From positions 63,492 to 127,491 of the IMG/VR virus record IMGVR_UViG_3300031993_000027: DNA of 64,000 nucleotides; one strand, 5' to 3'. This document shows, piece by piece, positions 12,024 to 50,919 of the stretch. The notes under the pieces are model-generated. The model made no database searches and was not told the DNA's origin. It was given only the letters and a program-made list of their open reading frames with translations. Source of the DNA: a virus. Taxonomy: Duplodnaviria; Caudoviricetes. The first letter of the stretch is position 1; the number at the start of each line of letters is the position of its first letter. Made by a program: the position numbers and the translations under genes.

Positions 12024-12866
12024 TCAGATAAGTAATTCGTCATCTAAGTCTATGTCACCTAAGAGCATATCTATGTTGTCTATATTTGACGTTACTCTAT
12101 CGTAAAGGTCTTCCTCGTCTTCTTCATCATTGATACCGCTAAAGTAATCAGACAAAGTTCCTTCAAACACTACCTGATAATCGTCAGGCACAGGCAGTCC
12201 TTGTATATTGGTCACATACACCTTTATTGTATCAGATTCCACGTCTTCTTCGATATCGGTTATAACATCATATCCTTCTTTTTTACAACCCTCTTTAAAC
12301 GCATCTAAGATAGCCCCTAGGCAAGAATCCGTAAGTTCATAGTTATGTTCTTTTGCTACATCCCAAATAATATCCTCTACGTCACAATCAGAATTAAACT
12401 GTTCCATCCAGTATTTAAGGTCTTTTATGTTACTGATAGCATTGTATCTATCTTCCTTTTCTTGGTCGTATGCTCTGACTATAAGGACAGGAAACTTCTT
12501 GTCCCAACCGTACAGATTGCCCACAACTAACATACGGTGTAGTCCTTCTTGTCCTTTGTCAGCAAAATTGATAAAAGGAAGGTTGAGTTGTCTTCCGCTT
12601 TGTAGTTCGTTAGTCATCCATTCTATCGTATCAGTATCACGTTCTCTCTGTCTCTTCAAGTCTTCTACGCTTGATTTAGGATGAATATATTTCGAATCAA
12701 GTTCAAAGTATTCTTTTGGAGACATATAAACGATTTCCCCTGTCCTGTTCTTGGCTTTCTGCTTGTAAGCCAATTCTTCAGGGTCGAGGAAATCATCGTA
12801 ATAGGACATACCTACTTTGTCTGTCCTAAAAGGTTGTTTAGTTAGTTCTTCATAAACACGTAACAT
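12024..12866 (-). CDS. ParB/Srx-like domain protein with leader MLRVYE
   Basis: IVYMSPKEY..LPFI..QEGLHR..FPVLI; acidic C-terminus. Confidence 0.55.
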   Translation of the reverse strand: MLRVYEELTKQPFRTDKVGMSYYDDFLDPEELAYKQKAKNRTGEIVYMSPKEYFELDSKYIHPKSSVEDLKRQRERDTDTIEWMTNELQSGRQLNLPFINFADKGQEGLHRMLVVGNLYGWDKKFPVLIVRAYDQEKEDRYNAISNIKDLKYWMEQFNSDCDVEDIIWDVAKEHNYELTDSCLGAILDAFKEGCKKEGYDVITDIEEDVESDTIKVYVTNIQGLPVPDDYQVVFEGTLSDYFSGINDEEDEEDLYDRVTSNIDNIDMLLGDIDLDDELLI

Positions 12867-12873
12867 ATCAATC

Positions 12874-13131
12874 TCACAAGTTTAGTTTATTGACACTGTA
12901 TTTAATTACAGGCTTTCTTCGCCACTCGTCCATATCATTGTCCCACGCTTCTTGATTAAACCTGAAACTACATACATAACTGTACCCATCTTCAACAAGT
13001 TCTTCTACACTGTCTGTATTGCAAACAGAATACTGATTATCCAATTTTATAACAGACACATCCTGTTGATTCATAGCGTGTTTCTTTGCATTGTTCACCG
13101 CACCTTGATAAGTCATATTATCCACGTCCAA
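12874..13131 (-). CDS. hypothetical protein
   Basis: ORF in tight operon. Confidence 0.55.
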   Translation of the reverse strand: MDVDNMTYQGAVNNAKKHAMNQQDVSVIKLDNQYSVCNTDSVEELVEDGYSYVCSFRFNQEAWDNDMDEWRRKPVIKYSVNKLNL

Positions 13132-13981
13132 TAGCCTTAATCAAAGCAGGTGTGTATCCACCCTTGCCTCCATTAGCCTTGTAGTATGCCATACAGAGGT
13201 CTTCAATATATCTGTACCAATCAGCCATTTCATAATCCGACGTAATGCAAGAATATCCTGTATATTTGAACTCTCCATTCTTGACAATCCAATCAATATA
13301 TATGTATTCTGCATCGAATATCTTAGACCTACTTGTTCTTATGTAAGCCTTACCGCCTACGTATTCAGCCATAGCCTTTGCTGTCTCTACATAGCCTACG
13401 TCCTTACGAACGTCATACATACGAACTAACTCGTCATATACGTCTCTTACATCAGGAAGAAGAGGGTCGCCTGTAAAGTCACTCTCGGTCAACCTAGATT
13501 CATAAGCAAAACGATAGGACAATCCACCACGCTTTCCACGTCCGTAATAGTCCATTGTATCGAGGTCATAAGGCATCGGGTCTTTACCCTTTACCTGCTC
13601 GTAGGAAACGTCCTCAATAGCATCCTCGTTATCTGCGTTCATAGGAAATGCCTTGTACTTAGGTCTGCCTCCACCAAGGCTGTTTTTCTGATAGCAATAC
13701 CAACCTCCCTGACTTCCGACATAAGTATAACCATCCTGCTTTAACTTGTCGTGAAGGGGAGCGTTGTAGAACTCTGTAAGACAGGATTCGTCATAGATAT
13801 CCATATCATATTCTTCATCCTGCCAAGCGAAGTTAATCCTGTCTTTCAGGTCATAATATGTCTCATAGTCATAATCAGACCACTCGTTCTCGTTAGGATG
13901 CTTCTTTAAAAAGTCCTGAAGTTGTCTTTCTAACGCTCTAGGGTCTTCATAATCCCTATACGTCTCAACTACTCTAATCAT
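13118..13981 (-). CDS. multidomain hypothetical protein with leader MIRVVE
   Basis: ORF; internal CLTE and RLTE sites. Confidence 0.7.
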   Translation of the reverse strand: MIRVVETYRDYEDPRALERQLQDFLKKHPNENEWSDYDYETYYDLKDRINFAWQDEEYDMDIYDESCLTEFYNAPLHDKLKQDGYTYVGSQGGWYCYQKNSLGGGRPKYKAFPMNADNEDAIEDVSYEQVKGKDPMPYDLDTMDYYGRGKRGGLSYRFAYESRLTESDFTGDPLLPDVRDVYDELVRMYDVRKDVGYVETAKAMAEYVGGKAYIRTSRSKIFDAEYIYIDWIVKNGEFKYTGYSCITSDYEMADWYRYIEDLCMAYYKANGGKGGYTPALIKAIGRG

Positions 13982-15769: not shown

Positions 15770-16087
15770 TCACAACATTGTAAATAGTTTAGAATTACGG
15801 TTTGTTATAGCGTACAGGTCTCCTGTATTTTTATCTCTAAAGAGAATTGCATTGTAGCCATAACCGTTTCTACTTTTGCCTAAAACCTCTTTCTTGATAG
15901 ACTGAAGAAACTTTTTAAATTCCTCGTAGGAATAGTTAGATACATCTTCTGCCATACCGTTTTCTACGTACCAAAGTATGTCCTCTTTAGTACAGGATGT
16001 ACCTCTTGTATTGAGAAGGTCTTTGTATTGATGATTCGACTTAGACCTTCCCCACGTTCTTGCCTCTACCTTGATTTCTCTTATCAT
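15770..16087 (-). CDS. hypothetical protein with leader-like MIREIKVE
   Basis: ORF, ATGA coupling. Confidence 0.65.
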   Translation of the reverse strand: MIREIKVEARTWGRSKSNHQYKDLLNTRGTSCTKEDILWYVENGMAEDVSNYSYEEFKKFLQSIKKEVLGKSRNGYGYNAILFRDKNTGDLYAITNRNSKLFTML

Positions 16088-17076: not shown

Positions 17077-18081
17077 TTACTCTTCTTCGTCAAAATCTTC
17101 GTCTTCTTCGTCCTCGTCCCAATCAGGTTCGAGTTCGTCTTTGTGTTCTTCCCACTTTTCTTTCGCCCAACGTTCGAAGTTCTTATAAAAATCTTGTTCG
17201 AATCTTTCAAGTTCTTCCCTTGTTAGGTTATCTATTTCAAAACCATCGTATTGATTATATACATCAATATAACCATTATCACGAACATAATCTCCATAAT
17301 CAATGAAGTCTTCTATTACATCTGAAGCATCAATAATACCTGCTTCGTGGAGTTCATCAAAATAAGAGTTCATTCCAAGGTTTGCATCGTAACTATGACA
17401 GTGACCTTTTTCTTCCCAATACTCAACGTGACTATTGTCTATTTCTTCATCATAAGAACGACAATCTGCTGTTGCAGGTTCAGCAAATAATTCAAGGTTT
17501 GCTTCAAGATAATCTACGATTGCTCCTGCAAGAGTTTCTTCGATAAACTTAGTATAAGCATCGTCGTTTATTTGATAATATTCTATATGTTTATAAGCAT
17601 AATCTTTAAGAAGTCTTGCGATAGTATCATCTGTTTCTTCAATAAGGAATGAGGCATCACCGCCACACGTTTCAAGACCATAACCTTCGTAGTATAAATC
17701 GCCATCATTATAGTTACGGTAAGCAATCCTGTTGTACGCTCTTACAATCTCACCGCCTTGCGTATCGGAAGTGCCTGACTGTTTAACAAAAGGCTTAAAC
17801 AAATCTTCCAACTTCTCGTCTGCGGTCTTATCGCTTTCAAGGATATCTCTAGCAACAGAAATCTCGGCTTCGTGCTCCTTGATGAAAGCCTGTTTTTGTC
17901 TCTCGGCTTCCTCACGCTCTTTAGCCAATCTCTCTGCTTCCTTCTCGTCATCGTACTTCTGCTGTGTCTTACGAGTAACCGTGTCGTAAGAATCGTATCC
18001 GTACTGACTTGCATCTTTAGGAAGCATTATATTACCAACACGGATATAATCATCTTCCGCTTCAAACAGATTAAGTCTCAT
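17077..18081 (-). CDS. acidic hypothetical protein with leader MRLNLFE
   Basis: AAGGAG SD; GEIVRAYNRIAYRNYNDGD domain. Confidence 0.75.
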   Translation of the reverse strand: MRLNLFEAEDDYIRVGNIMLPKDASQYGYDSYDTVTRKTQQKYDDEKEAERLAKEREEAERQKQAFIKEHEAEISVARDILESDKTADEKLEDLFKPFVKQSGTSDTQGGEIVRAYNRIAYRNYNDGDLYYEGYGLETCGGDASFLIEETDDTIARLLKDYAYKHIEYYQINDDAYTKFIEETLAGAIVDYLEANLELFAEPATADCRSYDEEIDNSHVEYWEEKGHCHSYDANLGMNSYFDELHEAGIIDASDVIEDFIDYGDYVRDNGYIDVYNQYDGFEIDNLTREELERFEQDFYKNFERWAKEKWEEHKDELEPDWDEDEEDEDFDEEE

Positions 18082-18184: not shown

Positions 18185-18997
18185 TTAGAAATAAAAGTCT
18201 ACGTAGACCATCTTATCGCCCTTGAAATCACGCCAAGAGTTCATATCGGAATACTTCGTACAACCGAACGTTCTTGTTGCCCTGTCATACTCACCCTTGA
18301 TATAAACCTGCGAATCCTTTGGAGAAGGAATATCCTTCAGCGTAAAGAGGTCTCCCTGCTTCAAGGACTTCAACGGAACAGGTGTTTGAGCACTCCAATT
18401 AGTCGTATCAACAGCATCTTCGTCGTACTTCTCTGTGAACCTGATAGGAACTCTGAAACTTACCAACTGATTGTTCTTGTACTTTCCTGTCGGTATGTAT
18501 CCTTCAAATTGGAAGCCAAACCTATTAATTTTGTCTTTAGGAAGTTTAGTTCCGAACTTGTCGTCATCGTCAGTAGCGTTATTAGGTCTAGTGAAGTTCA
18601 ACGTTCTCTTGTCGAACGTTACCATCGTAGAACCGTCGGATACATAGATAATGCCGAAGAAATCTTCATCCTTCCAAATGATAGATTCCTGATTGAGAAG
18701 TCTACCGATTTCAAGAGCCGTTTCCTTCTCAATGTTGTAGAGAATAAAACTCTTCTCAAAGCCTACCGTTCCACTATCATAGGTATAAGTTCCGTTGACA
18801 AAGTTGAAGCCACGAACCTTGCCCTTGTCCGAATACTTGCGGATAAGGTCTCTAAGTTCGTCATACCTGCTCTCGTAGGTATCCTTGTCCTGACTTCCTA
18901 TAATAGCAAAAGTAACACTATCGGTAAGATGTTGATAGATTCTACCATAACTTGCTTCTAACAGATTGTCTCTGCTTTCAAGTTCTATAACTGCCAT
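18185..18997 (-). CDS. hypothetical protein, DUF3293-like domain, leader MAVIELE..LLE
   Basis: FAIIG..V.G.Y..EKSF..GRLLNQESI pattern. Confidence 0.55.
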   Translation of the reverse strand: MAVIELESRDNLLEASYGRIYQHLTDSVTFAIIGSQDKDTYESRYDELRDLIRKYSDKGKVRGFNFVNGTYTYDSGTVGFEKSFILYNIEKETALEIGRLLNQESIIWKDEDFFGIIYVSDGSTMVTFDKRTLNFTRPNNATDDDDKFGTKLPKDKINRFGFQFEGYIPTGKYKNNQLVSFRVPIRFTEKYDEDAVDTTNWSAQTPVPLKSLKQGDLFTLKDIPSPKDSQVYIKGEYDRATRTFGCTKYSDMNSWRDFKGDKMVYVDFYF

Positions 18998-19043: not shown

Positions 19044-19069
19044 TCTTAACGAGACAGCGAGATTGAATC
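19044..19069 (-). promoter_or_regulatory. bipartite motif copy 3 (GATTCAA-N10-TCGTTAAGA)
   Basis: Intergenic, same spacing. Confidence 0.6.
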
Positions 19070-20762
19070 ACCACCCACGTTTAATATACTTCCAAAAACG
19101 ATTGATTGCTTCTTCATCCGAATTTGCTCTTAGGGACATTTTTGCATCGTCGTCCTTCAGGATGATATACTCGTCGGTGTCACCAAATGTGGAATCCTTG
19201 ATAAGTTCCCACTCGCCTCTCTTGATGATAGATACTTCATCAGTAGTCTTGGTGTTAAGAGCCTCTACCTCATAGGATGTTGTGTTATCGTCAATCATCT
19301 TGTCAAGAGCCTTTGTATTAGCAAAGTAAGCAGAACCGTTATCATCTGTTACAACAAGGTTTCCGTTTGCATCTGAACCAAGAACCAAGTTGTACTTAGC
19401 AATAGTCTTTACTGTTTCCCAATTAGTAAAGTTGTCGTTAATAAGTTCTTCCAACTGATATGTGTCACAAACTACAACTTCACTTCTCTTTGATTTTAAT
19501 AACTTACAGATATTGTCATCGGCTCTTACCCAGTAATCCATGTCCTTATCGTCCATGTTGTTAATCATACCTTCTTCGATATCATCGAGAAATCTATAAT
19601 CTACCTTATCGCTTGCACTCTCTAACTTCCTTCTCATAGTCCTGTTTCCCTTTCTGCTTTCAAGTGTTGTTTTATTTAATGGAATAAGTTTGAGTTCACT
19701 ATAATCAGGGTGATGTATAAGTTGAGCCTCAAAGTTCTTATCACAGTCATTGCAAAATACTTCTGTGTAGTCTCCGATAGAATCTATATGGATGGAGTTC
19801 TTAGCACCGCATTCAGGGCAATCTACGTCTTTATCAATATATGTCATAGACCACTCGTTTTTTCTCTGTCTGTTTTCAAGTGAAAGTTCCTGCGACCTTA
19901 ACTTCATATAACTGTCCTTTAAATCGGACAGCAGACCAAGGTTGCGAATCTCCTTGAAGGTCTGATTTCCTTTGCCGTATTCTCCTTCAGCAAGGAGACC
20001 GTTCTTACGAAGCAGGTACAGGTCATCGACCATCTTGTTTATCTTATCAGGGTCTTTGCTGTCAAGAGCCTCATTTATCTTATTCTTCCATTCGTCGATA
20101 TCTGCTTCGATATCAATTTCAGGAACTTCGATAGGTTCGGGTTTCTTTATCCACTCTTCCGTCATTACGGAGTAAATGCCGTTACTCATAGTGGATGCGT
20201 TTACATCTTCAACATAGAGTTCAACGTCTATGCCGTGAATAGAAATATCATAGGATTCGTTGAAGTCTGCCTTGGAGAAGTTCATAAGGGTCTGCACTAA
20301 TCCTGTATTGTCATCTATTGTCAGAAAGTTAACAACGATATGAACGTCAATATCGGAATGACTTGTATAGTTATAAGAAGCATTAGAACCCAACAGATAT
20401 ATATCTATCGGGTTGATATCTATTTCGGTCATGCCTTTAATTGTCTCTCTGAACTCTTCCACGATTTCGAGAATCTTTTCTCTTACGTCAGGAAGCAGGT
20501 TCATATTGGTATCCCACAACTTAGGATTGAGTTCTTTGTGTACCTCTAATTTCTCCGTTATTAGGCTTTCAGTAGCGAACGGTGGATTATATGGTTTGAG
20601 TTCTTTGCTAGAGAACACAGGAGCACTGTCACCGTTCCAAAGGCTAACAGAGTATTCGTCGTCTTCCTCATTAGCATCAACGACCTTACCCCACTCGCCA
20701 CCGTACCATTCACTGTTTTTCTTTATCTCTACGTAGTCGCCTACTTTAAACTTCTTCGCCAT
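19068..20762 (-). CDS. multidomain protein: SH3/KOW-like, Pol-beta-family nucleotidyltransferase, zinc ribbon, unknown
   Basis: FKVGDYV; LLGSNASYNY..SDIDVHIV..VELYV; CPEC..CNDC. Confidence 0.75.
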   Translation of the reverse strand: MAKKFKVGDYVEIKKNSEWYGGEWGKVVDANEEDDEYSVSLWNGDSAPVFSSKELKPYNPPFATESLITEKLEVHKELNPKLWDTNMNLLPDVREKILEIVEEFRETIKGMTEIDINPIDIYLLGSNASYNYTSHSDIDVHIVVNFLTIDDNTGLVQTLMNFSKADFNESYDISIHGIDVELYVEDVNASTMSNGIYSVMTEEWIKKPEPIEVPEIDIEADIDEWKNKINEALDSKDPDKINKMVDDLYLLRKNGLLAEGEYGKGNQTFKEIRNLGLLSDLKDSYMKLRSQELSLENRQRKNEWSMTYIDKDVDCPECGAKNSIHIDSIGDYTEVFCNDCDKNFEAQLIHHPDYSELKLIPLNKTTLESRKGNRTMRRKLESASDKVDYRFLDDIEEGMINNMDDKDMDYWVRADDNICKLLKSKRSEVVVCDTYQLEELINDNFTNWETVKTIAKYNLVLGSDANGNLVVTDDNGSAYFANTKALDKMIDDNTTSYEVEALNTKTTDEVSIIKRGEWELIKDSTFGDTDEYIILKDDDAKMSLRANSDEEAINRFWKYIKRGW

Positions 20763-20773: not shown

Positions 20774-21115
20774 TTATTCTTCAAATTTATCAAGCAGTTC
20801 ATCTTCGTAGTATATCTCGTCATATTCAATGCCGAGTTCGTTCAGATACTCTACTAACGGATACCTGCCATACTCGTCTTCTAAATTTTCCCACAGGTCT
20901 TCATAATAATACGAGCGATAATTCTCGCCATCATCTATTTCTTCGACCAATCCTTCTTCAAAGTAGTCATTATAATTCATGTCGCTATCAACTTCTATGC
21001 CTAACGATATGCAAGCAAATATTTCAGGGTCAACTTCAACAACATCAAACAACGTCCAATGGAGTTGAGGCATATAGGCTGTGCTTAAATCTGTTTCTGC
21101 TACAACTATTCTCAT
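20774..21115 (-). CDS. very acidic hypothetical protein with leader MRIVVAE
   Basis: ORF, AGGAG SD. Confidence 0.7.
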   Translation of the reverse strand: MRIVVAETDLSTAYMPQLHWTLFDVVEVDPEIFACISLGIEVDSDMNYNDYFEEGLVEEIDDGENYRSYYYEDLWENLEDEYGRYPLVEYLNELGIEYDEIYYEDELLDKFEE

Positions 21116-21118: not shown

Positions 21119-21604
21119 TCATTTTCTCCTATGTTCATATAGTTTACCGAAGATATAGAACCTTCTTATTTTATCCACAACTTCATCAGATATCATATCA
21201 GACAATCTATACTTCTGCACCTGTCCATCGTAGGTATAGACTTCAACGAAGTTTTGTTTCGCCCCTAACATATCAAGCCACACAAGAAGAACCTTGTACT
21301 GTTCATCGGTCAACTGTCTTTCAGGTAAGACCATATACCACTTTGTCGTATCGCATCTGATACATCCAAGGTCAAACATGGTTTGACTTCCCTGTGTTGC
21401 TTTATACTCGTTTTCGGAGTATCCGTTGTCAATCAGGAACTTCTCAACGTCCGAATGATGTGTATATCTTCTTAAATCCAAGAACTTGCCATCAGGCATT
21501 ATGTAGGTAATGCCTTTAAACGGTAAATCTTCTGTTCCAAATTCTTTTTCAATTATGGAAAGAAGTTCTTTTTCAGTTTGTTCCTGTTCTAAGAAGAGTT
21601 TCAT
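21119..21604 (-). CDS. hypothetical protein with leader MKLFLE
   Basis: YIMPDGKFL..H..GCIR domain. Confidence 0.7.
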   Translation of the reverse strand: MKLFLEQEQTEKELLSIIEKEFGTEDLPFKGITYIMPDGKFLDLRRYTHHSDVEKFLIDNGYSENEYKATQGSQTMFDLGCIRCDTTKWYMVLPERQLTDEQYKVLLVWLDMLGAKQNFVEVYTYDGQVQKYRLSDMISDEVVDKIRRFYIFGKLYEHRRK

Positions 21605-21608: not shown

Positions 21609-22613
21609 TCACCCAAAATAAATGTCACTAGGAAGGTCATAACCCTTCATATATTCTTCAACACCCTCTGCGGTATAGAGATAGTCGCTATAATCATCAA
21701 GTCCTCTCGGAACTCCAACAGCACCGAAGTTTTCTCCACCATAATAATCTACACAGGCTCTAGCAAACCACATAGGGTCTGTGTCCTTCTTACAATCTGC
21801 ATAGGATTCAACCGCATCAACGTCAATCCAAGAATCGTTGATATCAACTGTTCCATCTTCAATAAGATAAACGTATTCATCATCAGGTGTGTCATAAACA
21901 TAATTGCACCTAACGAAATCATATGTTCCGTCACCGTTATCAGAAATAATAAAGCCACCGTCAAGGAAGTTAACGTCTCCAATGTTCTCCCAATTTTGAG
22001 CGTTCCTGTTCTCGAAAAGATTAAGTTTCATAGTATTTATTCTCCTACTTTCTCCAAAATACTCGGCTACATAAGTGTCGAACTCTTCGCCTGTATATAA
22101 TGCTTTTTTCTTGCCACTCTGAATGTCTTCAATCTCGTCATCAAGAGCCTCGGCAAAGAATGTTTCCGTATCGGTAACTATTCCATTATCATCATCCAAC
22201 ATCAGGAACAAATCATCGTGAGAATAGAATCCGTATTCCTTGGTCTTCAGCATACATTCAAAATCAACTATACCGATATAATCCTGCGGAAATGAGATAA
22301 GAATTTGACCCTGATATTTGCTCCTGTTCTTGATGCTGTCAAAGATGCTCCAATCGTTGTTGAACTCGAAGTCGGTTACATCGTCTCTAAAGTATGCGTT
22401 AACAACATCAGAGAAGAGTTCTTCAGCACTAAGATTGGCTGAAGTGAAGGTCGAGATACCGCCCTCGTACTTCTCGTCTTCAACATAAAAAGTGATTTCA
22501 TCAAACTCGATTTCAGAGCCAACAGTAAGACCTTCGATTTCGAATCTTCCCTGCTTGCCTGAAAACTGATTTCCACTCTTAAATTGGAATGTCAGGTTAG
22601 TTACCTTTGCCAT
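21609..22613 (-). CDS. acidic fusion protein; internal leader MKLNLFE with own SD at ATG 22031
   Basis: ORF; AGGAG upstream of internal ATG. Confidence 0.7.
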   Translation of the reverse strand: MAKVTNLTFQFKSGNQFSGKQGRFEIEGLTVGSEIEFDEITFYVEDEKYEGGISTFTSANLSAEELFSDVVNAYFRDDVTDFEFNNDWSIFDSIKNRSKYQGQILISFPQDYIGIVDFECMLKTKEYGFYSHDDLFLMLDDDNGIVTDTETFFAEALDDEIEDIQSGKKKALYTGEEFDTYVAEYFGESRRINTMKLNLFENRNAQNWENIGDVNFLDGGFIISDNGDGTYDFVRCNYVYDTPDDEYVYLIEDGTVDINDSWIDVDAVESYADCKKDTDPMWFARACVDYYGGENFGAVGVPRGLDDYSDYLYTAEGVEEYMKGYDLPSDIYFG

Positions 22614-25134: not shown

Positions 25135-25365
25135 TTATTTTACTTCCCAATCACATCTATCGGTCACATCATAATACTTGCCATTTAAATCCCAACTTAA
25201 AAGTTTCCCACTATCGGTAACAATATATGAAGTCCACCAATTAGATTCGTCTTCAGGTGTATATTCATAACCATCACCAAATTCAGACCCTTGTCGAGTT
25301 CTTCTTATGTATTCTTTGCCATCAACATAGAGTTTATCTTCAATGCTTTCTCTTACAGGTATCAT
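25135..25365 (-). CDS. hypothetical protein with leader MIPVRE
   Basis: ORF, AAGGAG SD. Confidence 0.65.
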   Translation of the reverse strand: MIPVRESIEDKLYVDGKEYIRRTRQGSEFGDGYEYTPEDESNWWTSYIVTDSGKLLSWDLNGKYYDVTDRCDWEVK

Positions 25366-25376: not shown

Positions 25377-25580
25377 TTACTTATACTGACTAAGTTTTCT
25401 GACCCAGTGCATGAAAATTCCAAACGAAGGGAATGTGTTCGGGTCAAGGTCATCACTTATATTGTCGTAATACTCTCTCAACTCTTCGTTAGACAGACCT
25501 CTCAACATTTCAAGTTCCTTGCTAGAAAAGTCGTGAGTACCAAGTTTGTCCTTCTTGGCTTCCGTAACTTCGATAACCAT
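25377..25580 (-). CDS. hypothetical protein with leader MVIEVTE
   Basis: ORF, AAGGAG SD. Confidence 0.65.
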   Translation of the reverse strand: MVIEVTEAKKDKLGTHDFSSKELEMLRGLSNEELREYYDNISDDLDPNTFPSFGIFMHWVRKLSQYK

Positions 25581-25694: not shown

Positions 25695-25979
25695 TCAACT
25701 CTTACCTTCCCAAAATTCTGATGTTAGTGCGTCCTCTTTAGCCAAGGCATACAGACTATCTATGTCATATCCTTGGTCGTCTGTCCAATAATCCTTAAAG
25801 ATTGCAAACTCGTCGTTCTCAATAGGATAGATGGAGTAGAATACATCGGGGTTCTGTCTGTCTCCAACGAACCACCACCTGCGTCTTGCATCGTCTGTAC
25901 CGATTACTTTTGCCACAGACCAGTCGAAGTCACTTTCGGAATACCCTTCGTATCTATTCTCAAACAACGGAAGTTTCAT
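25695..25979 (-). CDS. hypothetical protein with leader MKLPLFE
   Basis: ORF, AAGGAG SD. Confidence 0.7.
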   Translation of the reverse strand: MKLPLFENRYEGYSESDFDWSVAKVIGTDDARRRWWFVGDRQNPDVFYSIYPIENDEFAIFKDYWTDDQGYDIDSLYALAKEDALTSEFWEGKS

Positions 25980-25991: not shown

Positions 25992-26318
25992 TTACCATGT
26001 AATTGTGGCAATCAGTCTGTCTCTAAGAAACGCCTGTCTGCCCTTATATTTTGTCATAGAACGAGGATTGAACTCGCCCTTAGTTGCATATTCATAGTCA
26101 CCTGTTTCAAAGGAAATGTCAAATCCGTTATCAACGAACCATTTACCGAGCATACCGTCGCTCATAAGTTCCTCTTCAGTAGTGCCTTTAGGAAAAGGAA
26201 TGATTATCTTATGATTTTCGTCATCAAACGTTGCCCCTTTAAACGGTTTAACGTGATTATATGCTTGCCAAAGAATATCACCTGATATTTCTTTTTCGTC
26301 CACTCTAATCATACTCAT
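25992..26318 (-). CDS. hypothetical protein with leader (MS)MIRVDE
   Basis: ORF, AGGAGGAG SD. Confidence 0.7.
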   Translation of the reverse strand: MSMIRVDEKEISGDILWQAYNHVKPFKGATFDDENHKIIIPFPKGTTEEELMSDGMLGKWFVDNGFDISFETGDYEYATKGEFNPRSMTKYKGRQAFLRDRLIATITW

Positions 26319-26330: not shown

Positions 26331-26663
26331 TTATTTATACAGTATGCTTGCAATTTCTTCTACGTCACGTAGTTCACCTTTTGCAATACTTAGAACGCAC
26401 TCTATAAGTTCGTCTTCAGTACAGGTATAGTCGCATATAATAGCACCTATTATCGTTGCTGTTCTTTTGTTTCCGTCTTGGAAGCCGTGTCCAATAGTAA
26501 GAGACCTTACAAGAGCACTTGCTCTTAATCTGTCATCATCATACCACTGTTGAGTACCCAAAGCCGACAGTAGGTTATCCTCGTTTATAACAACTGAACG
26601 TTCGTGAGCAAGATTACACACGCACTCGTTAACACCGATTAAGTAGTCAAGGTCAATTATCAT
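26331..26663 (-). CDS. doc: Fic/Doc family (death-on-curing) toxin
   Basis: HGFQDGNKRTA Doc signature. Confidence 0.85.
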   Translation of the reverse strand: MIIDLDYLIGVNECVCNLAHERSVVINEDNLLSALGTQQWYDDDRLRASALVRSLTIGHGFQDGNKRTATIIGAIICDYTCTEDELIECVLSIAKGELRDVEEIASILYK

Positions 26664-36592: not shown

Positions 36593-39514
36593 TTAGCCAA
36601 TAACATTTCCTCTTCTATCAAGTTTCTTCCCTGCTTTGAGGTTGTTATAGATATCCATAATCCTTGTCTTACCTGCGGTAATATAGATTACTCCGTCTAA
36701 CTCTCCTTCAGGGTGATAGAGGTCTCTCTTCTTGTTCCCAAACTCGTCGAACGCTCCTGCATTACTCCTTGCTACGGTATGGTTAGAAACTCTATAATTC
36801 TGACCATCTATTGTAAAGTAGTAGGAATCGTTGGACATGGATGATTTTATACCATTCTTGACACAGAACTCGTCTATCTCGTCCATCTTCTTAGCGAACT
36901 CTTGTGCCTGTGCTTTAGAAGGTTTCCATCTTCTTCCGTAGGTTTCTTCAAGGTCTTCCTCTTCGTCTTCGTCATCGTCCTCGGTGAAGAGGTCAATCTT
37001 CTTATGAGAAGCAGGGACGTTAGCGATAGCACCTGCGTTAGTTGCTTCTTCGAGGTCTTCAGGTTCGTCCTCGTACCAATCGTCACCGTAAAGGTCTTTC
37101 AGCAGGGAGGAATTACGGATGTTCTCTTCGTCGTCGCTACTAAGGTATGAGGAAGAGCCGTAATAGTCATCCTCTGTCTGAAACGGAGAATCAATGGTAC
37201 GGTCATAATAGTACCTGTCATCTTCTCCGTCCTGCATAGCCTTAACATATTCTTCCTCTTCGTGAGCGACCCAATCCTGATAGGATTTATAGTCAGCATA
37301 GTTCTTGAATCCGAAAGCATCAGCAACGGTATTGAAGATTTCTTCCGCATCGTTTGGATGGTCTTCGATGAATTTCTGAAGGATAGACCAATTAGAATCC
37401 TGCCACATCTTATCCCACTCTTTTTCAGGCATTTGTGCCATCACTTTGAGTTCAGCAAGATTGTCGATAGCGTTCTCGGAATTATCATAAGTTCCTGTGG
37501 TCATATTCATGCTGTCGTTGTCAAAGAGTTCTACAACGGCAAGAGCAAGTTCTTTAGCCCTACTGTTATCATCCTCTTCAACAAGAATCTCGTCTTCGTC
37601 GATATCATCCTCAAAGTCAAGATTGTCCTTGTCATCTGCGAAGTGACCCTCGTCGGGTACTTCTTCATCAGAATCATAGATTACTTCCTTATCGTCCTTT
37701 TCATTCTTCATTCTTATCAACTCCTTTTTACGCTGATATGATTCTCTTACTTCAGGTTCTTCACTGGGTTCTTTGTTGGATTCTTCATCATAATAAATAA
37801 TTTCGCAGTTTTCAGGCAGACCCCACTCTTCGATACCTTCTATTCTTGGTGTCCAAATCATTTCCAAGTTGGGACACTTAGCAAACGCATTAGGATATAC
37901 CTTTTGAAGCGTTCTAGGAAGTTTGATTGATAAAAGGTCTGTACATCCTGCAAACGCTCCCTTATCAATAACTTCAACGTTGCTATTTCCAAATCCTCTT
38001 ACTGATACGAGGCTTCTATCTTCATAAAAAGCATATTTGCCTATTACTTTGACTGATTTAGGAATAAAAATACTTTTCAAGTTAGGACTATAAGCAAAAG
38101 CAAACGGACTTATTACGTCGATGGTCGATAAAGTAGGAAATTCGAAACTAGTTATTCCACTATGAGAAAAACTTGCTTTGCCTATCTCGTTTAGTTTTGT
38201 TGTACCTTCATTGAACACTTTAATATTAGGACACATCCTAAACGCATCTTCCTCAATCTTTTCAAGGTTTTTAGGAAGATAAATATTTGAAAAATTTGCA
38301 CACCTATGAAAAGTTCCTTCTTCTATTGTTTTCAAATTATCAGGAAGAAAAACCGTTACCAATTCTGCACATTCAGCGAACGCATATTTGCCAACCTTAG
38401 TTACTGAATCAGGAACTTCAATACCTGTAAGAGAGGATTCTGCAAAAGCAAAATCTTCGATTACTTCAAGAGTTTCAGGCAACAAAATATGCTCTATTTT
38501 ACACCTTTGAAAAGCGTTTGCCTTGATAGTAGTAATACCTTCAGGGATTGTGATTTTTTTAGGGCAATTCTCACGTCTAAGAACGTCCTTTACTTTCGTA
38601 ATTGTCGTGTCACCTTCAATCACAAAATAATCGTTTTCAGTAAATTCCTTTACGTACTTCTTGATTTCCTGTTCAACATTGAATCCTGCCACCTTAGAAA
38701 GTTCAGCATAGGTCTTATACATATTATCTGCGCTGTCAGGAGATTTTATGCCTACATGATTACATCTAAGGGTGACATTTTTGAGATTGCCATATTCATC
38801 AGTCCTGATAGCCATCAAAGAGTTGCCATAGTCGTCTCTAGGATTTTCACGATTGGATTCTGCATCAAAAGGAATATTTTCCCAATCGTTATTCTGAAGA
38901 ACAAAGAATCTGCCTCCATCTTGTGTCCAACTATTGTAAGTATCTTCATCGTTGGTATGACACCAAGCCGTACCGCCACCACCTGCGTAAGCATCGGATT
39001 TACCGTCACCTGTCGCCTTACCACCGTAGAGGCTGTGCATCTGCTCATAGGAATCAATAGGAACAATCTTAAAATTAGAGGAAGAGAAATCCATCTTAGA
39101 CAACTCTTCCTTTGATTTTACATCTAATTCGTCCTGTATCCTTTTCAGTTCGTCCTTAACGTCTTGAAAAGACATTTCATTATTAAACTTGTTGTCAAGG
39201 GCAGTGCCACCCATCTTCTCTCTGTTCTCTCTAACCCACATCAAATACTGGTCGAAAACAGAAGGGCACTCTCTAAGGAACGCCTCTGCTCTGTGGGGGT
39301 CTCCGTTTGCTTCATCAACAAGCATCCTCGCAATACCCATGAGGTACTTTTCGAGCCAAGCAGGAGAATGGACAAAAGCATGGATATCTTCTTTGAACAA
39401 AGCCTGAATGATAGCGTTACTCACTTCCTCATTAAACAGACCTGAATCCGAGATAATCTTCGATGCCTTTTTGTCGTACTTCGTACCTTCAACTAGAATC
39501 ATCTGTTCACTCAT
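36593..39514 (-). CDS. BspA-type leucine-rich repeat (LRR_5) protein, paralog 1, leader MILVE, acidic multi-module tail
   Basis: Repeats such as IPEGITTIKANAF, LPETLEVIEDFAF; N-domain with GGGGTAWCH. Confidence 0.85.
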   Translation of the reverse strand: MSEQMILVEGTKYDKKASKIISDSGLFNEEVSNAIIQALFKEDIHAFVHSPAWLEKYLMGIARMLVDEANGDPHRAEAFLRECPSVFDQYLMWVRENREKMGGTALDNKFNNEMSFQDVKDELKRIQDELDVKSKEELSKMDFSSSNFKIVPIDSYEQMHSLYGGKATGDGKSDAYAGGGGTAWCHTNDEDTYNSWTQDGGRFFVLQNNDWENIPFDAESNRENPRDDYGNSLMAIRTDEYGNLKNVTLRCNHVGIKSPDSADNMYKTYAELSKVAGFNVEQEIKKYVKEFTENDYFVIEGDTTITKVKDVLRRENCPKKITIPEGITTIKANAFQRCKIEHILLPETLEVIEDFAFAESSLTGIEVPDSVTKVGKYAFAECAELVTVFLPDNLKTIEEGTFHRCANFSNIYLPKNLEKIEEDAFRMCPNIKVFNEGTTKLNEIGKASFSHSGITSFEFPTLSTIDVISPFAFAYSPNLKSIFIPKSVKVIGKYAFYEDRSLVSVRGFGNSNVEVIDKGAFAGCTDLLSIKLPRTLQKVYPNAFAKCPNLEMIWTPRIEGIEEWGLPENCEIIYYDEESNKEPSEEPEVRESYQRKKELIRMKNEKDDKEVIYDSDEEVPDEGHFADDKDNLDFEDDIDEDEILVEEDDNSRAKELALAVVELFDNDSMNMTTGTYDNSENAIDNLAELKVMAQMPEKEWDKMWQDSNWSILQKFIEDHPNDAEEIFNTVADAFGFKNYADYKSYQDWVAHEEEEYVKAMQDGEDDRYYYDRTIDSPFQTEDDYYGSSSYLSSDDEENIRNSSLLKDLYGDDWYEDEPEDLEEATNAGAIANVPASHKKIDLFTEDDDEDEEEDLEETYGRRWKPSKAQAQEFAKKMDEIDEFCVKNGIKSSMSNDSYYFTIDGQNYRVSNHTVARSNAGAFDEFGNKKRDLYHPEGELDGVIYITAGKTRIMDIYNNLKAGKKLDRRGNVIG

Positions 39515-39674
39515 ACTTACTCCTTTTCGCTATCTCTCCAATTCCTTATAGCAAATCCTGTACCATATTTTTTATCTAACGACTTTAAATAGTCGTTTCT
39601 TTGTTTAATCAACTTCTTCGAATCCTTCATAGGGATAAATATTCTTTCCCTGCAATCGTAGTCTTCGACTTTAA

Positions 39675-41501
39675 TCATACTTCAATCTCTCCGAGGTCTT
39701 CACCGCCAAGTTCTTCACCCCCACCAAGTTCAGGCTCGTTGAACTCTTCACCACCACCGAGGTCAGGTTCTTCGTTACCGCCACCAAAGTTCATGTCAAT
39801 GTCGGTGTGACTGCCACCGAAATCTCCACCGCCTCCGTGACTTTCCATATCGAGGTTTGCTTCTTCCTCTTCTGTCAATTTGTCAAGCGTTTCATCCTGT
39901 TCTACCATAGCACTGATATCAGGCTGTGACAGGTAGTTAGAGAGATAATTGACAATGATTTCTTTTCTTGTTTGAGGGTCAATCATATCTTCAGGAATGA
40001 GACCGAGAACTCTATCGACAACATCTGCTCTTGTTCCGATAGTCTCGTCACGCTCTGCATCCTCTGTCGTAGCAGGAGAAGTCATCTTAACGGTAAAGTT
40101 GTTGATGTACTTATTGAATCCCCTGTCAAGGGCAAAGATATTTATAAGCGTTGTTATAGCAGAAATATAGGCGTTCTGTATCCTCTTGATAGTTCTAGCA
40201 TATCTTGAATCAAGTTTAGTCAGGGATGTACCACCGTTGAAACCTGCGCTATCATCGGTATCGCCAAGAAACATCGGGGGTATCTTTAATCCACCGTACA
40301 ACTTCTTCTTGAAGTGGTCGATATCAGTAATAGATTTTACGTCTACATCACCGCCAAGGCTCGACATAGAGACAGCACCCTTACCTTCTCTCGTAGGAAC
40401 ATAGAGCACGTTATCAATAGCAGAAGGAGAAGCCGAAGATGTGAACGTTCCTTGGTTCTTATCCATGAAGTTCTTCTGCTCGATAAGTCTCTTGTATTTA
40501 CGCAAGACTTGTTCTGCCTGATTCTGTGGCATATCTCCAATCTCAATCTGCAAGATACGGATAATAGAAGACCTCGTAACACGGTTAAGAAGAAGAGCGT
40601 CTTCCATCAACTGCAATTCACGATAGGTCTTGTATGTATCATAAAGGATGGACTTGCCACGCTTAACCTTATAGGCAACTGTCTTCAGTGTTGTTTCGTT
40701 AGTCTCACTTCCATTTACAGGCACTTCGAAATTTATCTTGAAGGTTTCAGGAAAACGGTCTGTGTCCGTTCCGAGCATAGCGTGAACAAACTTGTTTGAT
40801 TTGTATATCTGAATGTTATTATCGTCTGCATTATAAACATATGACCTGAAGACATTATCTTGGTCACTATTATCATAATTGTGTACTCCGACAAATCCGA
40901 CGGTCTTGCCTCTTGAAGCAAGGTCAAACATATCGGCAGGATTAGGTACGGCATCCAAGTATTCAACTAATTGTGAACCCTTCTTTGTGGATACCAAGTC
41001 GATATCGGAGTGGTCTATCTTATTAATTATAGGGTCGTCTTCAATCTCACCGTCTTCGTAGAGTTGGAGGTAAAGGTCTCCGTACTTACAGAGCGAGTAG
41101 ACGTGTGACCAAGCGTTCTCATTGATTTGAAGCACGTCGATAAGTCTGTTAGCAAAAGCGGATACGTTCGGGTCGTCAGATTCTACCCAAATAATCTGTC
41201 CGTTAGTGTTGTATTGTGTCGCATCATCAGTATAGAGTTCAAGGGCGGTAGATATAATCGTATCCAACGCCATTTCGTCATACATCCTGTACTGTGAGTT
41301 CCTGTCTGTACCGAGAGTACGGAACTTCTGAAATTCTGCAAGGTCTACTAGCGAAGAACTTTCATCAAGAGCACCGAGGACGTTTACAAGGGAATTTGAC
41401 TTAGAGGCAATTCCTATCTCTGTTTCTTTACTCGGCTTACCTTTAACTCTAATCTTCAGAAAGTCTTCGTGAAGATTCTTTTTATTACTATTTTCTGCCA
41501 T
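39675..41501 (-). CDS. portal protein, T4 gp20-like
   Basis: YDEM..I..AL....DDAT, CKYGD, GKSIL, LQLMEDALLLNRVTRS, DIDHFKKKLYGGLKIP, YARTIKRIQ. Confidence 0.88.
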   Translation of the reverse strand: MAENSNKKNLHEDFLKIRVKGKPSKETEIGIASKSNSLVNVLGALDESSSLVDLAEFQKFRTLGTDRNSQYRMYDEMALDTIISTALELYTDDATQYNTNGQIIWVESDDPNVSAFANRLIDVLQINENAWSHVYSLCKYGDLYLQLYEDGEIEDDPIINKIDHSDIDLVSTKKGSQLVEYLDAVPNPADMFDLASRGKTVGFVGVHNYDNSDQDNVFRSYVYNADDNNIQIYKSNKFVHAMLGTDTDRFPETFKINFEVPVNGSETNETTLKTVAYKVKRGKSILYDTYKTYRELQLMEDALLLNRVTRSSIIRILQIEIGDMPQNQAEQVLRKYKRLIEQKNFMDKNQGTFTSSASPSAIDNVLYVPTREGKGAVSMSSLGGDVDVKSITDIDHFKKKLYGGLKIPPMFLGDTDDSAGFNGGTSLTKLDSRYARTIKRIQNAYISAITTLINIFALDRGFNKYINNFTVKMTSPATTEDAERDETIGTRADVVDRVLGLIPEDMIDPQTRKEIIVNYLSNYLSQPDISAMVEQDETLDKLTEEEEANLDMESHGGGGDFGGSHTDIDMNFGGGNEEPDLGGGEEFNEPELGGGEELGGEDLGEIEV

Positions 41502-45547: not shown

Positions 45548-45554
45548 AACTAGT

Positions 45555-47943: not shown

Positions 47944-47969
47944 TCTTAACGATGTTTTAGGATTAAATC
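47944..47969 (-). promoter_or_regulatory. bipartite motif copy 5 (GATTTAA-N10-TCGTTAAGA)
   Basis: Also shares upstream GAGTGAA with copy 1. Confidence 0.6.
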
Positions 47970-47970
47970 T

Positions 47971-50919
47971 TCACTCGCTGATATATCTTAATACAGGGAA
48001 GACCTGTTCAACCTCAACTTCCACTGTCCTGCCTTTGTACTGAACCGTGGTGTTGTAGTTTCTAAGCAGGTACTTGACCTTATCCGTGAAGTATTTGCCC
48101 ATAATCTTGAAGTCAACTTCTACCTCGAATGATACTACTCCGTACTCGTCATCACAGTTGGTATACTCAATCTCAAAGTCGTTGAACTGATTGCCCCTGC
48201 ATATATACTCTTTATTTGCCCTTATTTTCTCTTCTACGAGTTCTCCAAGAGCATCAAGGATAGAACCCTCGTCCACAATATGCTCGGCTTCTCCGTTGAT
48301 GATATCGTAGTGTAATTGGATATCGAGTTTATAGAGTTCAGGCAGGTCGCTCTCATTAAGAGATAACTTGTACTTACTGTACGATTCATTTGCTTCTACC
48401 TGCCTTTTTGTGATATTGGCATTTGTTCCATCAAATACATCCTTATCATATCTAAGCGTGCTCGGAATAGATATTGAACCAAGATTAGGGCAATCTGCAA
48501 ATGCTCCATCCTCAATCTTTGTTACGTAATCAGGGATATACAAAGATATAAGACCGCTTTCGGAAAAGGCATATGTTCCTATTGTAGTAAGAGATTGAGG
48601 TAATCCTATATATTGCAAATTGTCGCAACCTAAGAAACAACCGTCAGGAATTTTAGTAATTCCTTCAGGGATTTGAGTAACAGCACTTCCAAGTGTTTCA
48701 CCACTCTTTACATAACCAAGATTTGTACAACCTGAAAATGCACTTATGCCAAGGTCTACTAATGTAGATGGAAGGTAGACCGTTTCTAATTGGGTACAGT
48801 CTTCAAATGCTCCTGAACCTATTTTAGTAACCCCTTCAGGTATAATTACTGTTTTAACAGAATTATTAGAAGCAAACGCTCTTTCTCCAATTTCAGTTAC
48901 TTCGTTAGGTATAGTAATGAGGGTAACTTGTTTTTGAGTTGCTTTCTTTGACTTTTGAAGACCAAGGCACTTCGTTCCGACAATAACATATTCGTTATTT
49001 TCATCGGTCATCTTCGTTCCTTCGAATGCTGTCTTATCTACTTCAATTCCACTAGGTATAGTAACAGATAAATTTTTACAATCCTTAAATGCCTGTGCTC
49101 TGATTCTTCTAAGCGAAGAAGGGAACTTAACATCAGTAAGAGCCGTACATCCTTCAAAAGTGTTAGGGTCTATCGTTTTCATTCCATTAGGCAAAGTAAT
49201 TGATTTTAGTTTTTTACAATTTTTAAACGAACTACGACTAATGTCACAATTATCTGCTAATCCAACTATCTTCTCAATACCGCTATTTTCAAAAGCACAT
49301 TCTTGAATATAAGTAACAGCACCCCAATTTATGTTTGTCAAGTTAGTGCAATTTCTAAATGCACCAAACTCAATTCTTTCTACTGAAGGGCAATTTATTT
49401 TTTTCAAGTTTACACATCCATCAAATGCACCTGCCTTGATTGTGTCAATATTCAAAGGAATAGTTATTTCTTCAAGTGAAGTACAATCTTGAAATAAAGT
49501 CATAGGGATTCTATCGTAGTTCTCATTATCAGGAAGGGTCACTTTTGTAAGGGAAGAACATCCCTTAAAAGCACTTGCATCTATACTTGTAACTGAAGAT
49601 GGGAAGTTAATTTCTTTAAGTGAAGAACAACTTAAAAAAGCACCTGTTGATATATTAAATATTCCTTCAGGCAACAAAAGCGTTTCAAGAGAAGTACATA
49701 TACTAAATAATTGGCTTGACAAAATTTCAATCTGTGAAGGTATATTTATTTTCTTTAGTGCAATACACTTAGTAAAAACACCTTCTCCAAGGTCTTTTAA
49801 TGATTCAGGTAAGACTACTTCAACAAGTTCAGGGAGATTTGCAAAAGCACCTCCTAAAATATATTCAATACCTTCTTCAATGATTATCTTTTTGACGTGA
49901 GGTAATTTGCCTAAAAAAGAAAATTGACGAATCCTTTTTATTTCTTTTTCTCCAATTTTTGAAGGTATCTTCAACTCAAAAATATTGTCAATATCGGATT
50001 CGTCTGTTATTCCACTAATGGCATCGTAGTCATATTCAAATTCAACTAATCCCTTGACACGCTCTTCACAGTATTTCTTGATTTCCTGTTCTACATTAAA
50101 TCCTGCAATCTCTGACAGGTCTGCATAGGTTTCATATTGATTGTCAGGACGAGAAGGGTTTCCTACGTGGTTATTACGAAGCGTAACTTTTTTAAGAGTT
50201 CCGTATTTGTCCGTAAGGATAGCCATAAGGGAATGACCATAATCGTCTTTACCCTGTGTTTTGGCATTACTCTTAGCATCAAAAGGAATATCTTCGTAGT
50301 TATTATTCATAAGTACGAAGAACTTATATTTACCACCGCTTACCCAATTTTTATAAGTATCTTCATCGTTGGTATGACACCAAGCCGTACCGCCACCTCC
50401 TGCGTACAAGTCAGAAGAGCCATCACCTGTTTTCCTGCCTCCAAACAACTTGTGCATTTCTTCATAAGAGTTGATAGGAACAAGTTTAAAGTTTGAAGAA
50501 GTGAACTCCATATTTGCCATCTTCTCGGCATTCTCTTTTTCACGTTCTTCTTGGATTTCTTCTAGTGCCTTTTTTACGTCATCGAACGACATTTCCTTAT
50601 TGAACTTGTCATCAAGAGAGTTACCGAATTTCTCACGATTTGCTCTAACCCACATAAGGTACTCGTCAAACATAGGTGTAGATTCTTCTTCGAACGTATC
50701 AATCTGTTCCTGACTGCCATCAGTATTCTCTCTGTACATACGAGCAATACCTATGAGGTATTTCTCTAGCCAAGAGGGAGAATGAACAAAGGCGTGAATC
50801 TTGTTTTTGAATATGTCGTTAATAAGATTAGTAGCAACGGTTTCATCCCAACCTGCGTTCACTAAATCTCTTATAGCATTTCTGTCGTATTTTGTTCCTT
50901 CATTGAGTGGACGTATCAT
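47971..50919 (-). CDS. BspA-type leucine-rich repeat (LRR_5) protein, paralog 2, leader MIRPLNE
   Basis: Many IPxxVTxIGxxAFxxCxxL repeats; N-domain homologous to 36593..39514. Confidence 0.88.
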   Translation of the reverse strand: MIRPLNEGTKYDRNAIRDLVNAGWDETVATNLINDIFKNKIHAFVHSPSWLEKYLIGIARMYRENTDGSQEQIDTFEEESTPMFDEYLMWVRANREKFGNSLDDKFNKEMSFDDVKKALEEIQEEREKENAEKMANMEFTSSNFKLVPINSYEEMHKLFGGRKTGDGSSDLYAGGGGTAWCHTNDEDTYKNWVSGGKYKFFVLMNNNYEDIPFDAKSNAKTQGKDDYGHSLMAILTDKYGTLKKVTLRNNHVGNPSRPDNQYETYADLSEIAGFNVEQEIKKYCEERVKGLVEFEYDYDAISGITDESDIDNIFELKIPSKIGEKEIKRIRQFSFLGKLPHVKKIIIEEGIEYILGGAFANLPELVEVVLPESLKDLGEGVFTKCIALKKINIPSQIEILSSQLFSICTSLETLLLPEGIFNISTGAFLSCSSLKEINFPSSVTSIDASAFKGCSSLTKVTLPDNENYDRIPMTLFQDCTSLEEITIPLNIDTIKAGAFDGCVNLKKINCPSVERIEFGAFRNCTNLTNINWGAVTYIQECAFENSGIEKIVGLADNCDISRSSFKNCKKLKSITLPNGMKTIDPNTFEGCTALTDVKFPSSLRRIRAQAFKDCKNLSVTIPSGIEVDKTAFEGTKMTDENNEYVIVGTKCLGLQKSKKATQKQVTLITIPNEVTEIGERAFASNNSVKTVIIPEGVTKIGSGAFEDCTQLETVYLPSTLVDLGISAFSGCTNLGYVKSGETLGSAVTQIPEGITKIPDGCFLGCDNLQYIGLPQSLTTIGTYAFSESGLISLYIPDYVTKIEDGAFADCPNLGSISIPSTLRYDKDVFDGTNANITKRQVEANESYSKYKLSLNESDLPELYKLDIQLHYDIINGEAEHIVDEGSILDALGELVEEKIRANKEYICRGNQFNDFEIEYTNCDDEYGVVSFEVEVDFKIMGKYFTDKVKYLLRNYNTTVQYKGRTVEVEVEQVFPVLRYISE

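Follow-up and report, generated by a model that had tools for sequence, protein, structure and literature searches.

The stretch of DNA analysed here (the window) comprises 64,000 nucleotides of a tailed phage (Caudoviricetes), namely positions 63492-127491, the right half, of the 127,491-bp IMG/VR record IMGVR_UViG_3300031993_000027. This record is complete, with direct terminal repeats, and the phage under study is called G000 below. About 20 unrelated proteins encoded in the window start with a tag of 5-8 residues that ends in an aliphatic residue, any residue and a glutamate, and this leader is the subject of the present work. All plausible genes of the window are carried by the minus strand (-), and coordinates are window positions on that strand unless genome positions are indicated. 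Along the direction of transcription, the window contains small genes, a gene for a leucine-rich repeat (LRR) protein, a tRNA region, the terminase, the portal, a leader-rich array spanning about 39.5 to 12 kb and again small genes. The portal gene (39675..41501), described as T4 gp20-like in the original prediction, is indeed of this type (PF07230, E=1.7e-57) and forms the upstream border of the array. Beyond the left edge of the window follow a protease-scaffold gene, the gene for a Gp23-type capsid protein (genome 52555-53979) and then tail genes, and the array sits between the portal and protease genes, inside the head-morphogenesis operon. Strong terminators are rare within the array, and a megablast search with 20 kb against GenBank phages gave no match.

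The core form of the leader, MIR-x-x-(x)-E, begins ten genes of G000 (an arrow marks the end of a leader or a predicted cut, and lengths are in amino acids, aa). These are MIRVVE in a 287-aa protein with no Pfam or PHROG match (13118..13981), MIRVDE (106 aa, 25992..26312, with an alternative start at 26318 giving MSMIRVDE), MIRVIE (54 aa, 26660..26824), MIRALE (96 aa, 28413..28703), a second MIRVVE (109 aa, 28715..29044), MIRILE (127 aa, 29041..29424), MIRLIE (148 aa, 29427..29873), MIRVAE (126 aa, 29889..30269), MIRVINE↓G in a 261-aa protein with a phosphoribosyltransferase (PRTase) domain (PF00156, 33633..34418) and MIRPLNE↓GTKYD in a 982-aa BspA-type LRR protein, where a conserved N-terminal domain of about 300 residues follows (47971..50919). 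The paralog of the latter, of 973 aa and encoded just downstream of the portal gene (36593..39514), reads MSEQMILVE↓GTKYD from an ATG backed by a Shine-Dalgarno sequence (SD), the MILVE listed originally being an internal ATG at 39502. Two leaders are near the core form, MLRVYE (280 aa, weak SD, 12024..12866) and MINILE (95 aa, 27322..27609). More varied ones are MITVLNE (143 aa, 31642..32073), MAIRLLTE (140 aa, 26837..27259), MIPVRE (76 aa, 25135..25365), MRIVVAE (113 aa, 20774..21115), MKLFLE (161 aa, weak SD, 21119..21604) and, as members of a subtype M-[KR]-L-x-L-F-E, MRLNLFE (334 aa, 17077..18081) and MKLPLFE (94 aa, 25695..25979). An internal in-frame copy of this subtype, MKLNLFE (22011..22031), preceded by AGGAGA, lies at residue 195 of a 334-aa protein (21609-22613) and may be an internal site or else the remnant of a former gene junction.

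The remaining matches are looser: MAVIE/MAVIELE (270 aa, 18185..18997) and MVIEVTE (67 aa, 25377..25580), both within the background rate, MIEVSNE (164 aa, GTG start, 30274..30768), which has a G001 counterpart form MIEVINE, and MIREIKVE (105 aa, no SD, 15770..16087), whose gene overlaps the upstream one. These four are examples of about 3-6 listed members that could be coincidences, so that, although each of the 24 N-termini of the original prediction was found at its minus-strand start, their number is somewhat inflated. The motif had also been described as absent at 1-11 kb and 51-64 kb, and this did not hold, since MLRVTE (61 aa, 5286..5471) and MISVLE (89 aa, 56745..57014, 100% identical in G001) occur there. 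A further leader-like start missing from the earlier list, MIKVED (53 aa, 39517..39678), belongs to a small gene flanked by the portal and LRR genes, its P3 residue not being aliphatic (P1 is the last residue of the leader, P3 the third from its end).

The pattern ^MIR.{1,4}E was found in 9 of the 51 called genes between 12 and 51 kb and in none of the 146 genes called in the rest of the 127.5 kb (Fisher p=3e-6; the tenth core gene, at 26312, is absent from the automatic set of 51), and the core motif occurs at only one of 654 internal Met positions. A stricter rule, which leaves Ile-Arg optional and asks for the first Glu at residues 5-9, an aliphatic P3, at least two hydrophobic residues and no Asp ahead of the Glu, selected 17/51 genes in the interval vs 9/146 elsewhere (p=5e-6). 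In the relative G001 (G001 to G004 are IMG/VR relatives, and L-numbers denote further relative contigs), the same rule selected 14 of the 38 genes in the portal-to-protease interval vs 6/122 (p=3e-6). The leader is thus enriched over background by both the core motif and the stricter rule. Chance or a start-codon artefact would be plausible for the 3-6 loose members mentioned above, as 7.5-12% of background genes match the loose hydrophobic-x-Glu (h-x-E) motif and no good SD precedes the listed starts 12866, 16087 and 21604. For the core set it is excluded by the figures given, by the repeated enrichment in G001 and by the leaders seen in other relatives, and as an explanation of the whole it deserves almost no credence.

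The tagged set consists of about 17-22 mostly acidic orphans plus the PRTase-domain protein and the two LRR proteins. Paralogy as the source of the common N-termini was ruled out, as an all-against-all blastp after trimming 10 residues related only the two LRR proteins to each other. Pfam recognised among the tagged proteins only PRTase (34418) and LRR_5 (39514, 50919), confirming these two labels of the original prediction, whereas its 'ParB-like' and 'antitoxin' labels were not reproduced by Pfam. PHROGs gave no match for the 10 tagged proteins tested.

At DNA level the G000 leaders have in common an SD, in many cases ATAAAGGAGA, which a 6-nt spacer of variable sequence separates from ATGATTAGAGTA. 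Such a strong conserved context (ATAAAGGAGA-N6-ATG) and the ATGATTAGAGTA run would be compatible with a nucleic-acid element, that is, a translation enhancer, a RegA-like operator or a recombination boundary, the peptide being a by-product. Other gene families of G000 share 5' ends including upstream DNA (MNNDLI.., MKLIIDIPE..), which also speaks for this possibility, and so does codon usage in part: the Arg and Glu codons vary, as had been claimed, but the Ile-2 codon is biased, being ATT in 14/18 G000 leaders vs 36% genome-wide. Because of this bias, the MIR subgroup probably spread recently via its 5' end. However, DNA identity among the leader genes amounts to the SD plus about four codons and never extends beyond about 25 nt, no conservation was found upstream of the SD in these genes, and the same SD context is present on untagged genes. 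An extended DNA cassette was ruled out, since upstream regions diverge beyond the SD and G001 codons are synonymous-random. In G001, synonymous codon use in the leaders equals genome-wide frequencies and the SDs are varied, and across phages the residues themselves differ (IRV, ITVLN, IKVIK, KYKFRLI) while hydrophobicity and the terminal Glu persist as codons change, indicating that selection acts on the leader peptide. As described below, the motif also recurs at internal domain borders, well away from start codons, and co-varies with sites in other proteins, so that a nucleic-acid element seems very unlikely. A scan of IMG/VR for the SD plus MIR-h-h-E DNA gave 79 single matches, close to a rough, uncomputed chance estimate, and no contig with multiple copies, which suggests that this exact dialect is private to G000.

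The small-gene families that share 5' ends together with upstream DNA (..GGAGGCAGACA ATG AAC AAT GAT TTA, giving MNNDLI.., and ..GAGAGGTGATAAAGA ATG, giving MKLIIDIPE..) are found at window 1-11000 and 59000-64000 and at genome 1816-2568 and 59368-60671, and show mosaic internal similarities. This is a different phenomenon from the leader, namely DNA-level module shuffling or paralogy.

As the original prediction had noted, the leaders of the two LRR paralogs differ and their alignment runs from E↓GTKYD onward. The first ~300 residues of these proteins form a conserved domain starting GT(K/R)YD, which is present in 70 proteins on large phage contigs and is followed by variable C-termini (LRR, ART-PolyVal, GNAT or LIM). 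Leader counts were made on the 67 proteins with a recognisable domain start. Their leaders range from 6 to 319 residues, yet the site lies directly at the domain start whatever the length: among the three residues before the domain, P3 is L in 51, I in 10, V in 3 and F in 3 (67/67), and P1 is E in 61/67, A in 3 and K in 3. In addition, another h-x-E leader stands at the very N-terminus of 23 of the 40 long leaders of the family. In the AlphaFold2 (AF2) model of the GTKYD domain of the LRR protein (predicted local distance difference test, pLDDT, 85), residues 1-6 have pLDDT<50 and the fold begins from about residue 10, and in that of the PRTase protein (pLDDT 74) residues 1-5 have pLDDT<50 and the first strand begins at residue 8. 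In both models, the leader is thus predicted to lie outside the fold, with structure starting right after the Glu.

The nature of the GTKYD domain itself was also explored. Pfam gave no match, MuF included, on residues 1-320 of the LRR protein; the AF2 model had no PDB match at E<=1e-3, the best hits (VIA Z 6.9) being unrelated helical proteins, and against the predicted viral structures of BFVD it gave only weak 'PcfJ-like' matches (TM about 0.25). A MuF identity is therefore unsupported by Pfam and by fold comparison. The domain (window 49960-50919; homologs P0001-P0070) has invariant Cys181-His182, Asn250-His251 and Asp259 residues, with the motifs ..TAWCHTN.. and ..RCNHVG.., and these invariant residues suggest that it could be an enzyme.

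The gp21-like protease sought by the original prediction is present just outside the window. It is a Peptidase_S77 (T4 gp21-type) protein of 524 aa (genome 53998-55572; PF03420, E=6e-10, residues 32-167), in which a coiled-coil, scaffold-like tail is fused behind the protease domain. The neighbouring Gp23-type capsid protein (PF07068, E=3e-53) aligns with mature T4 gp23* from residue 68, and 13 residues ahead of the aligned region its propeptide reads AME↓ATNP. Among 94 capsid homologs (40-90% identity), two propeptide positions have an invariant Glu with variable P2 and P3 residues, ..h-x-E↓K/S and ..h-x-E↓(A/S)T(N/Q)P, at which the cut would take place. The scaffold tail of G000 is rich in [ILV]-x-E (18 vs 11.4 expected, p=0.013) and contains 0 sites of the Ala/Ser type. 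A site of the same form is thus seen in the capsid propeptide and, as an enrichment, in the scaffold tail.

Relatives provide further examples of leaders and of their portability. G001 (128,410 bp) has the same core gene order as G000, with a capsid 70% and a portal 62% identical, and was the only genome recovered in single-protein IMG/VR searches with the G000 capsid and portal. Its array, from portal to protease, contains 14 leader genes, including MITVLNE, a form also present in G000, MITILNE, MIRVIIE and MKINLSE. A G001 homolog exists for 65 of the 197 G000 proteins and for almost none of the tagged ones. The untagged ArdA antirestriction gene inside the array (32578..33378; PF07275, E=7e-32) is among the few array genes kept in G001 (63% identity). 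A 71-aa G001 protein, MIEVINE↓ANN.., corresponds from residue 7 to the last domain (residues 500-564) of a 564-aa multidomain G000 protein that is weakly nucleotidyltransferase/Lar-like (19068..20762), where the junction reads SYEVE↓ALN. The capsid gene of G001 is apparently interrupted (45389-45598 onward): only a 69-aa N-terminal open reading frame (ORF) is called, and residues 300-473 match further on. An intron, an intein or a frameshift may be the cause.

In L100, a distant compact relative, the portal, one small gene, the S77 protease and the capsid lie in a row, and because this order lacks the array, the leader arrays appear to be insertions into the head-morphogenesis operon. Other dialects are MIKLINE, MIKVIKE and MIRIIKE on a 205-kb contig (form MIK-h-I-x-E), MKYKFRLIE on ART-PolyVal proteins of L102, and MRFLFE and MKYNIVE in other relatives. 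L102 (Logan DRR595523, 128 kb), which belongs to the same phage group, is recoded at the stop codon TAG: its genes translate only with TAG as Gln, and in-frame TAGs are seen. Most of the contigs with portal relatives from metagenome assemblies are too short to show arrays.

In some phages the leader does not end in Glu, and it is here that the strongest evidence was obtained. Homologs of the PRTase protein carry, at the same position, either Glu-type or Ser/Ala-type leaders (MKIYIRS↓G, MKKYIQS↓G), and the array around one Ser/Ala-type homolog contains MKIYVKS, MKIYIHA (twice), MRKYIHS, MKIYIRS and MKIYIHE. Four exceptions in the GTKYD family start with MKRYI(R/K)S (MYRYIKS in P0037) and end in PIFA↓ at the domain start, giving ..PIFA↓GTKYD, and another leader end of the Ser/Ala lineage reads ..PISA↓G. 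The comparison with head proteins used the IMG/VR records G002, G003 and G004 in place of the ENA/Logan contigs L102, L103 and L107. G002 and G003, of the Ser/Ala dialect, possess S77 protease and gp23-type capsid genes, and their capsid propeptides read ..SIMGA↓TNTS and ..AIMAA↓TNTS where the Glu clade reads AME↓ATNP; they also carry KITA↓G and SITA↓N. The protease/scaffold junction is IAA↓S in the Ser/Ala lineage vs KVE↓S in G000 and VVE↓S in G001. In the scaffold tails of G002 and G003, [ILV]-x-[AS]-S is found 9 times vs 1.0 expected (p<5e-4) and 6 times vs 2.0 (p=0.013), and h-x-E is not enriched. G004 was predicted to be of the Glu type from its PRTase leader ..ELNE↓G, and it has ..FMAE↓A in the capsid, LISE↓G at the junction and 14 h-x-E vs 6.4 (p=6e-4) with 0 Ala/Ser sites in the scaffold. 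No Ser/Ala-type member was found among the top 120 capsid homologs. From these sequences, the last residue of the leader appears to shift in step with the P1 predicted for the protease sites of capsid and scaffold, and this co-variation is the strongest evidence for reading the leader end as a protease site.

The same data bear on the possibility that the leader is an uncleaved signal, such as an amphipathic strand docking to a chaperone, to the scaffold or to a RiPP-like (ribosomally synthesised and post-translationally modified peptide) modifying enzyme, or a degron. In its favour, the hydrophobic pattern is kept in all dialects, including those without Glu. Nevertheless, a non-protease partner would not explain why the last residue tracks the capsid and scaffold sites, and the site is also found far from the N-terminus, directly at the start of domains that leaders as long as 319 aa precede. 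A RiPP-like radical-SAM partner was discarded, as no radical-SAM gene (PF04055) is present in G000, G001 or G002, 14/14 control genomes being positive. Thus, we regard an uncleaved signal as unlikely.

We propose that the leader is a cleavable capsid-targeting tag, similar to the capsid targeting sequence (CTS) of T4, and would give this model a probability of roughly 0.6. The leader would consist of Met plus 4-7 residues, with an aliphatic P3 and a Glu P1, in G000 mostly as M-I-R-h-h-E, and its end would be the site recognised by the S77 protease that the phage itself encodes. By analogy with the T4 CTS, the tag would dock the protein to the scaffold/protease core during prohead assembly; the protease would then cut after the Glu, as is predicted for the scaffold and, at ..AME↓ATNP, for the capsid propeptide, freeing the mature protein in the head, and this protein would exit with the DNA at infection. 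Since enzymes of the gp21 type work within the prohead once it has assembled, cleavage by one of them would imply encapsidation. The sequences themselves show the motif and its enrichment, its occurrence on non-homologous genes, its place at fold boundaries and its co-variation with the capsid and scaffold sites, and cleavage, targeting, packaging, ejection and effector function are what we infer. The part of the original prediction that took the leader for a propeptide with a prohead-protease site was supported by every in-silico test. Its caveat that promoters in front of tagged genes might point to early expression has little weight, because sigma-70-like promoter sites in the sequence are at chance level (62 observed vs 56.6 +/- 7.5 expected).

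The tagged proteins would most likely be injected cargo for counter-defence or host takeover. This would fit with the fast-turnover island in which they are encoded, the untagged ArdA gene within it and the tags on ART-PolyVal proteins in relatives. More tentatively, and with somewhat less than even confidence, the leader may be considered, across a clade of uncultured T4-headed phages, a minimal address-plus-cut-site of 5-8 residues that works as a plug-and-play loader. Any gene acquiring it would turn into capsid cargo, the injected repertoire, here about 20 proteins and nearly all different in a sister phage, would be readable from sequence, and the address would co-evolve with P1, Glu in most lineages and Ala/Ser in one, as a lineage-private code.

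Several observations weigh against the cleave-and-package model. Taken without their leaders, the tagged proteins have a low pI (median 4.8 in G000 and 4.6 in G001), with 2/17 basic. The tag is shorter than the 10 residues of T4, and its likeness to it appears limited to aliphatic-x-Glu. G002, G003 and L107 seem to belong to a single lineage, and the co-variation therefore represents essentially one independent contrast over three site classes, and the capsid alignment for the Ser/Ala lineage has 27% identity. Part of the MIR uniformity appears to reflect recent common descent or 5'-end recombination. Finally, to the 7.5-12% background of the loose motif it should be added that this motif is also present on tail-sheath proteins (MPSITINE, MPRVIINE), some matches thus being due to chance.

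The acidity of the proteins, unlike that of T4 internal proteins, would also suit an alternative in which the leader is a real S77 site but serves as a cytoplasmic timing or activation switch, or in polyprotein-style maturation, with no packaging or injection. All the cleavage-site evidence fits this alternative equally well, and a preprint reportedly describes phage proteases that proteolytically activate CBASS immunity (PMC12991175). However, gp21-type proteases are assembled and activated in the prohead core (PMC9026906), the protease is here fused to a scaffold domain, the array is inside the head-morphogenesis operon, and trimming six residues that lie outside the fold is unlikely to activate ~20 unrelated proteins. 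For these reasons, cleavage without packaging seems improbable. None of the four alternatives considered explains the co-variation plus the fold-boundary positions as well as a cleavable packaging tag does.

The closest known system is that of T4, in which the CTS is present on IPI, IPII, IPIII and Alt and is removed by the prohead protease gp21 (PMC9026906, PMC3012670); in IPIII, the first 10 residues suffice for head targeting and residues 8 and 10 are needed for processing (PMC9026906). Like the CTS, the G000 leader is a short N-terminal propeptide with an aliphatic-x-Glu end on unrelated, fast-evolving proteins, and both phages have a gp21-family protease, a gp23-type capsid with a Glu-type propeptide site, a gp20-type portal and cargo genes in a hypervariable island. 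Unlike the CTS, the tag has 5-8 aa instead of 10, and nothing is shared beyond the cleavage motif; no T4 IP-family match to the tagged proteins was found in Pfam or PHROGs, and the leader would thus be an analogue of the CTS and not a homologue. G000 also differs from T4 in the number of tagged genes (about 17-22, amounting to roughly 10% of the proteome, vs a handful), in the location of the array between the portal and protease genes, in the fusion of protease and scaffold, and in the per-lineage dialects, one of them ending in Ser/Ala; the G000 system is known from sequence alone. The internal proteins of T4 are basic, whereas the cargo of G000 is mostly acidic.

In the giant phages phiKZ and SPN3US, propeptides are generally long and the cleavage motif is small-x-Glu. 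Many head-internal or ejection proteins of these phages are reported to be cut after Glu by a gp21-related protease (gp175 and gp245, respectively; PMC5694885, PMC7411985, PMC10052503), as is proposed for G000. They are not known to carry a uniform minimal N-terminal tag like that of G000. The Ser/Ala lineage may be compared with the herpesviruses. Assemblin maturation sites in these viruses are aliphatic-x-Ala↓Ser; similarly, leaders, capsid and scaffold sites in G002, G003 and L107 are I-x-A↓S, and the proteases belong to the same fold superfamily, although that of G002 and G003 is S77 by Pfam and its specificity is predicted from sequence. Polyvalent proteins and MuF-type polymorphic phage effectors, said to have been treated by Iyer et al. 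in 2017 and Jamet et al. in 2017, are reportedly thought to travel in the virion. The GTKYD proteins resemble them in having a conserved N-terminal module fused to swappable C-terminal domains, but the GTKYD domain has no Pfam or MuF-like fold match and most tagged proteins are single small orphans.

Other features of the genome are listed here for completeness. Between the LRR gene and the tRNA region, a gene conserved in G001 (47208-47915) encodes 235 aa with a hydrophobic N-terminus and a cell-wall hydrolase domain (PF07486). The terminase is split over two overlapping ORFs (43284-44702 and 41831-43345), and a stand-alone 250-aa ORF (genome 1816-2568) shares 81% identity with the C-terminal portion of the large terminase subunit (window 41831-43318). 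Two TnpB/IS605 OrfB (Cas12f-like TNB) genes are present at 14144-15301, in the leader array, and at 59053-60141 (PF01385/PF07282), and a short fragment of another TnpB copy lies at about 14144-14410. Two adjacent small genes, MSKTKTET.. and MSKTTIGF.., are duplicated (window 62953-63382 vs genome 59800-60290) with 96% identity, about 66 kb apart.

If the proposed model is true, the sequence of an uncultured phage would be enough to list which proteins enter the host together with the DNA, and these, mostly orphans in G000, would be prime candidates for anti-defence and host-takeover functions. The model would also extend the principle of the T4 internal proteins to about 10% of a proteome, with a tag of only 6-7 residues, and such a minimal encapsidation tag would be useful for phage engineering. 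Furthermore, the joint change from Glu to Ala/Ser in leaders, capsid propeptide and scaffold would represent a natural experiment on a specificity shift shared by a gp21/assemblin-type protease and all of its substrates.

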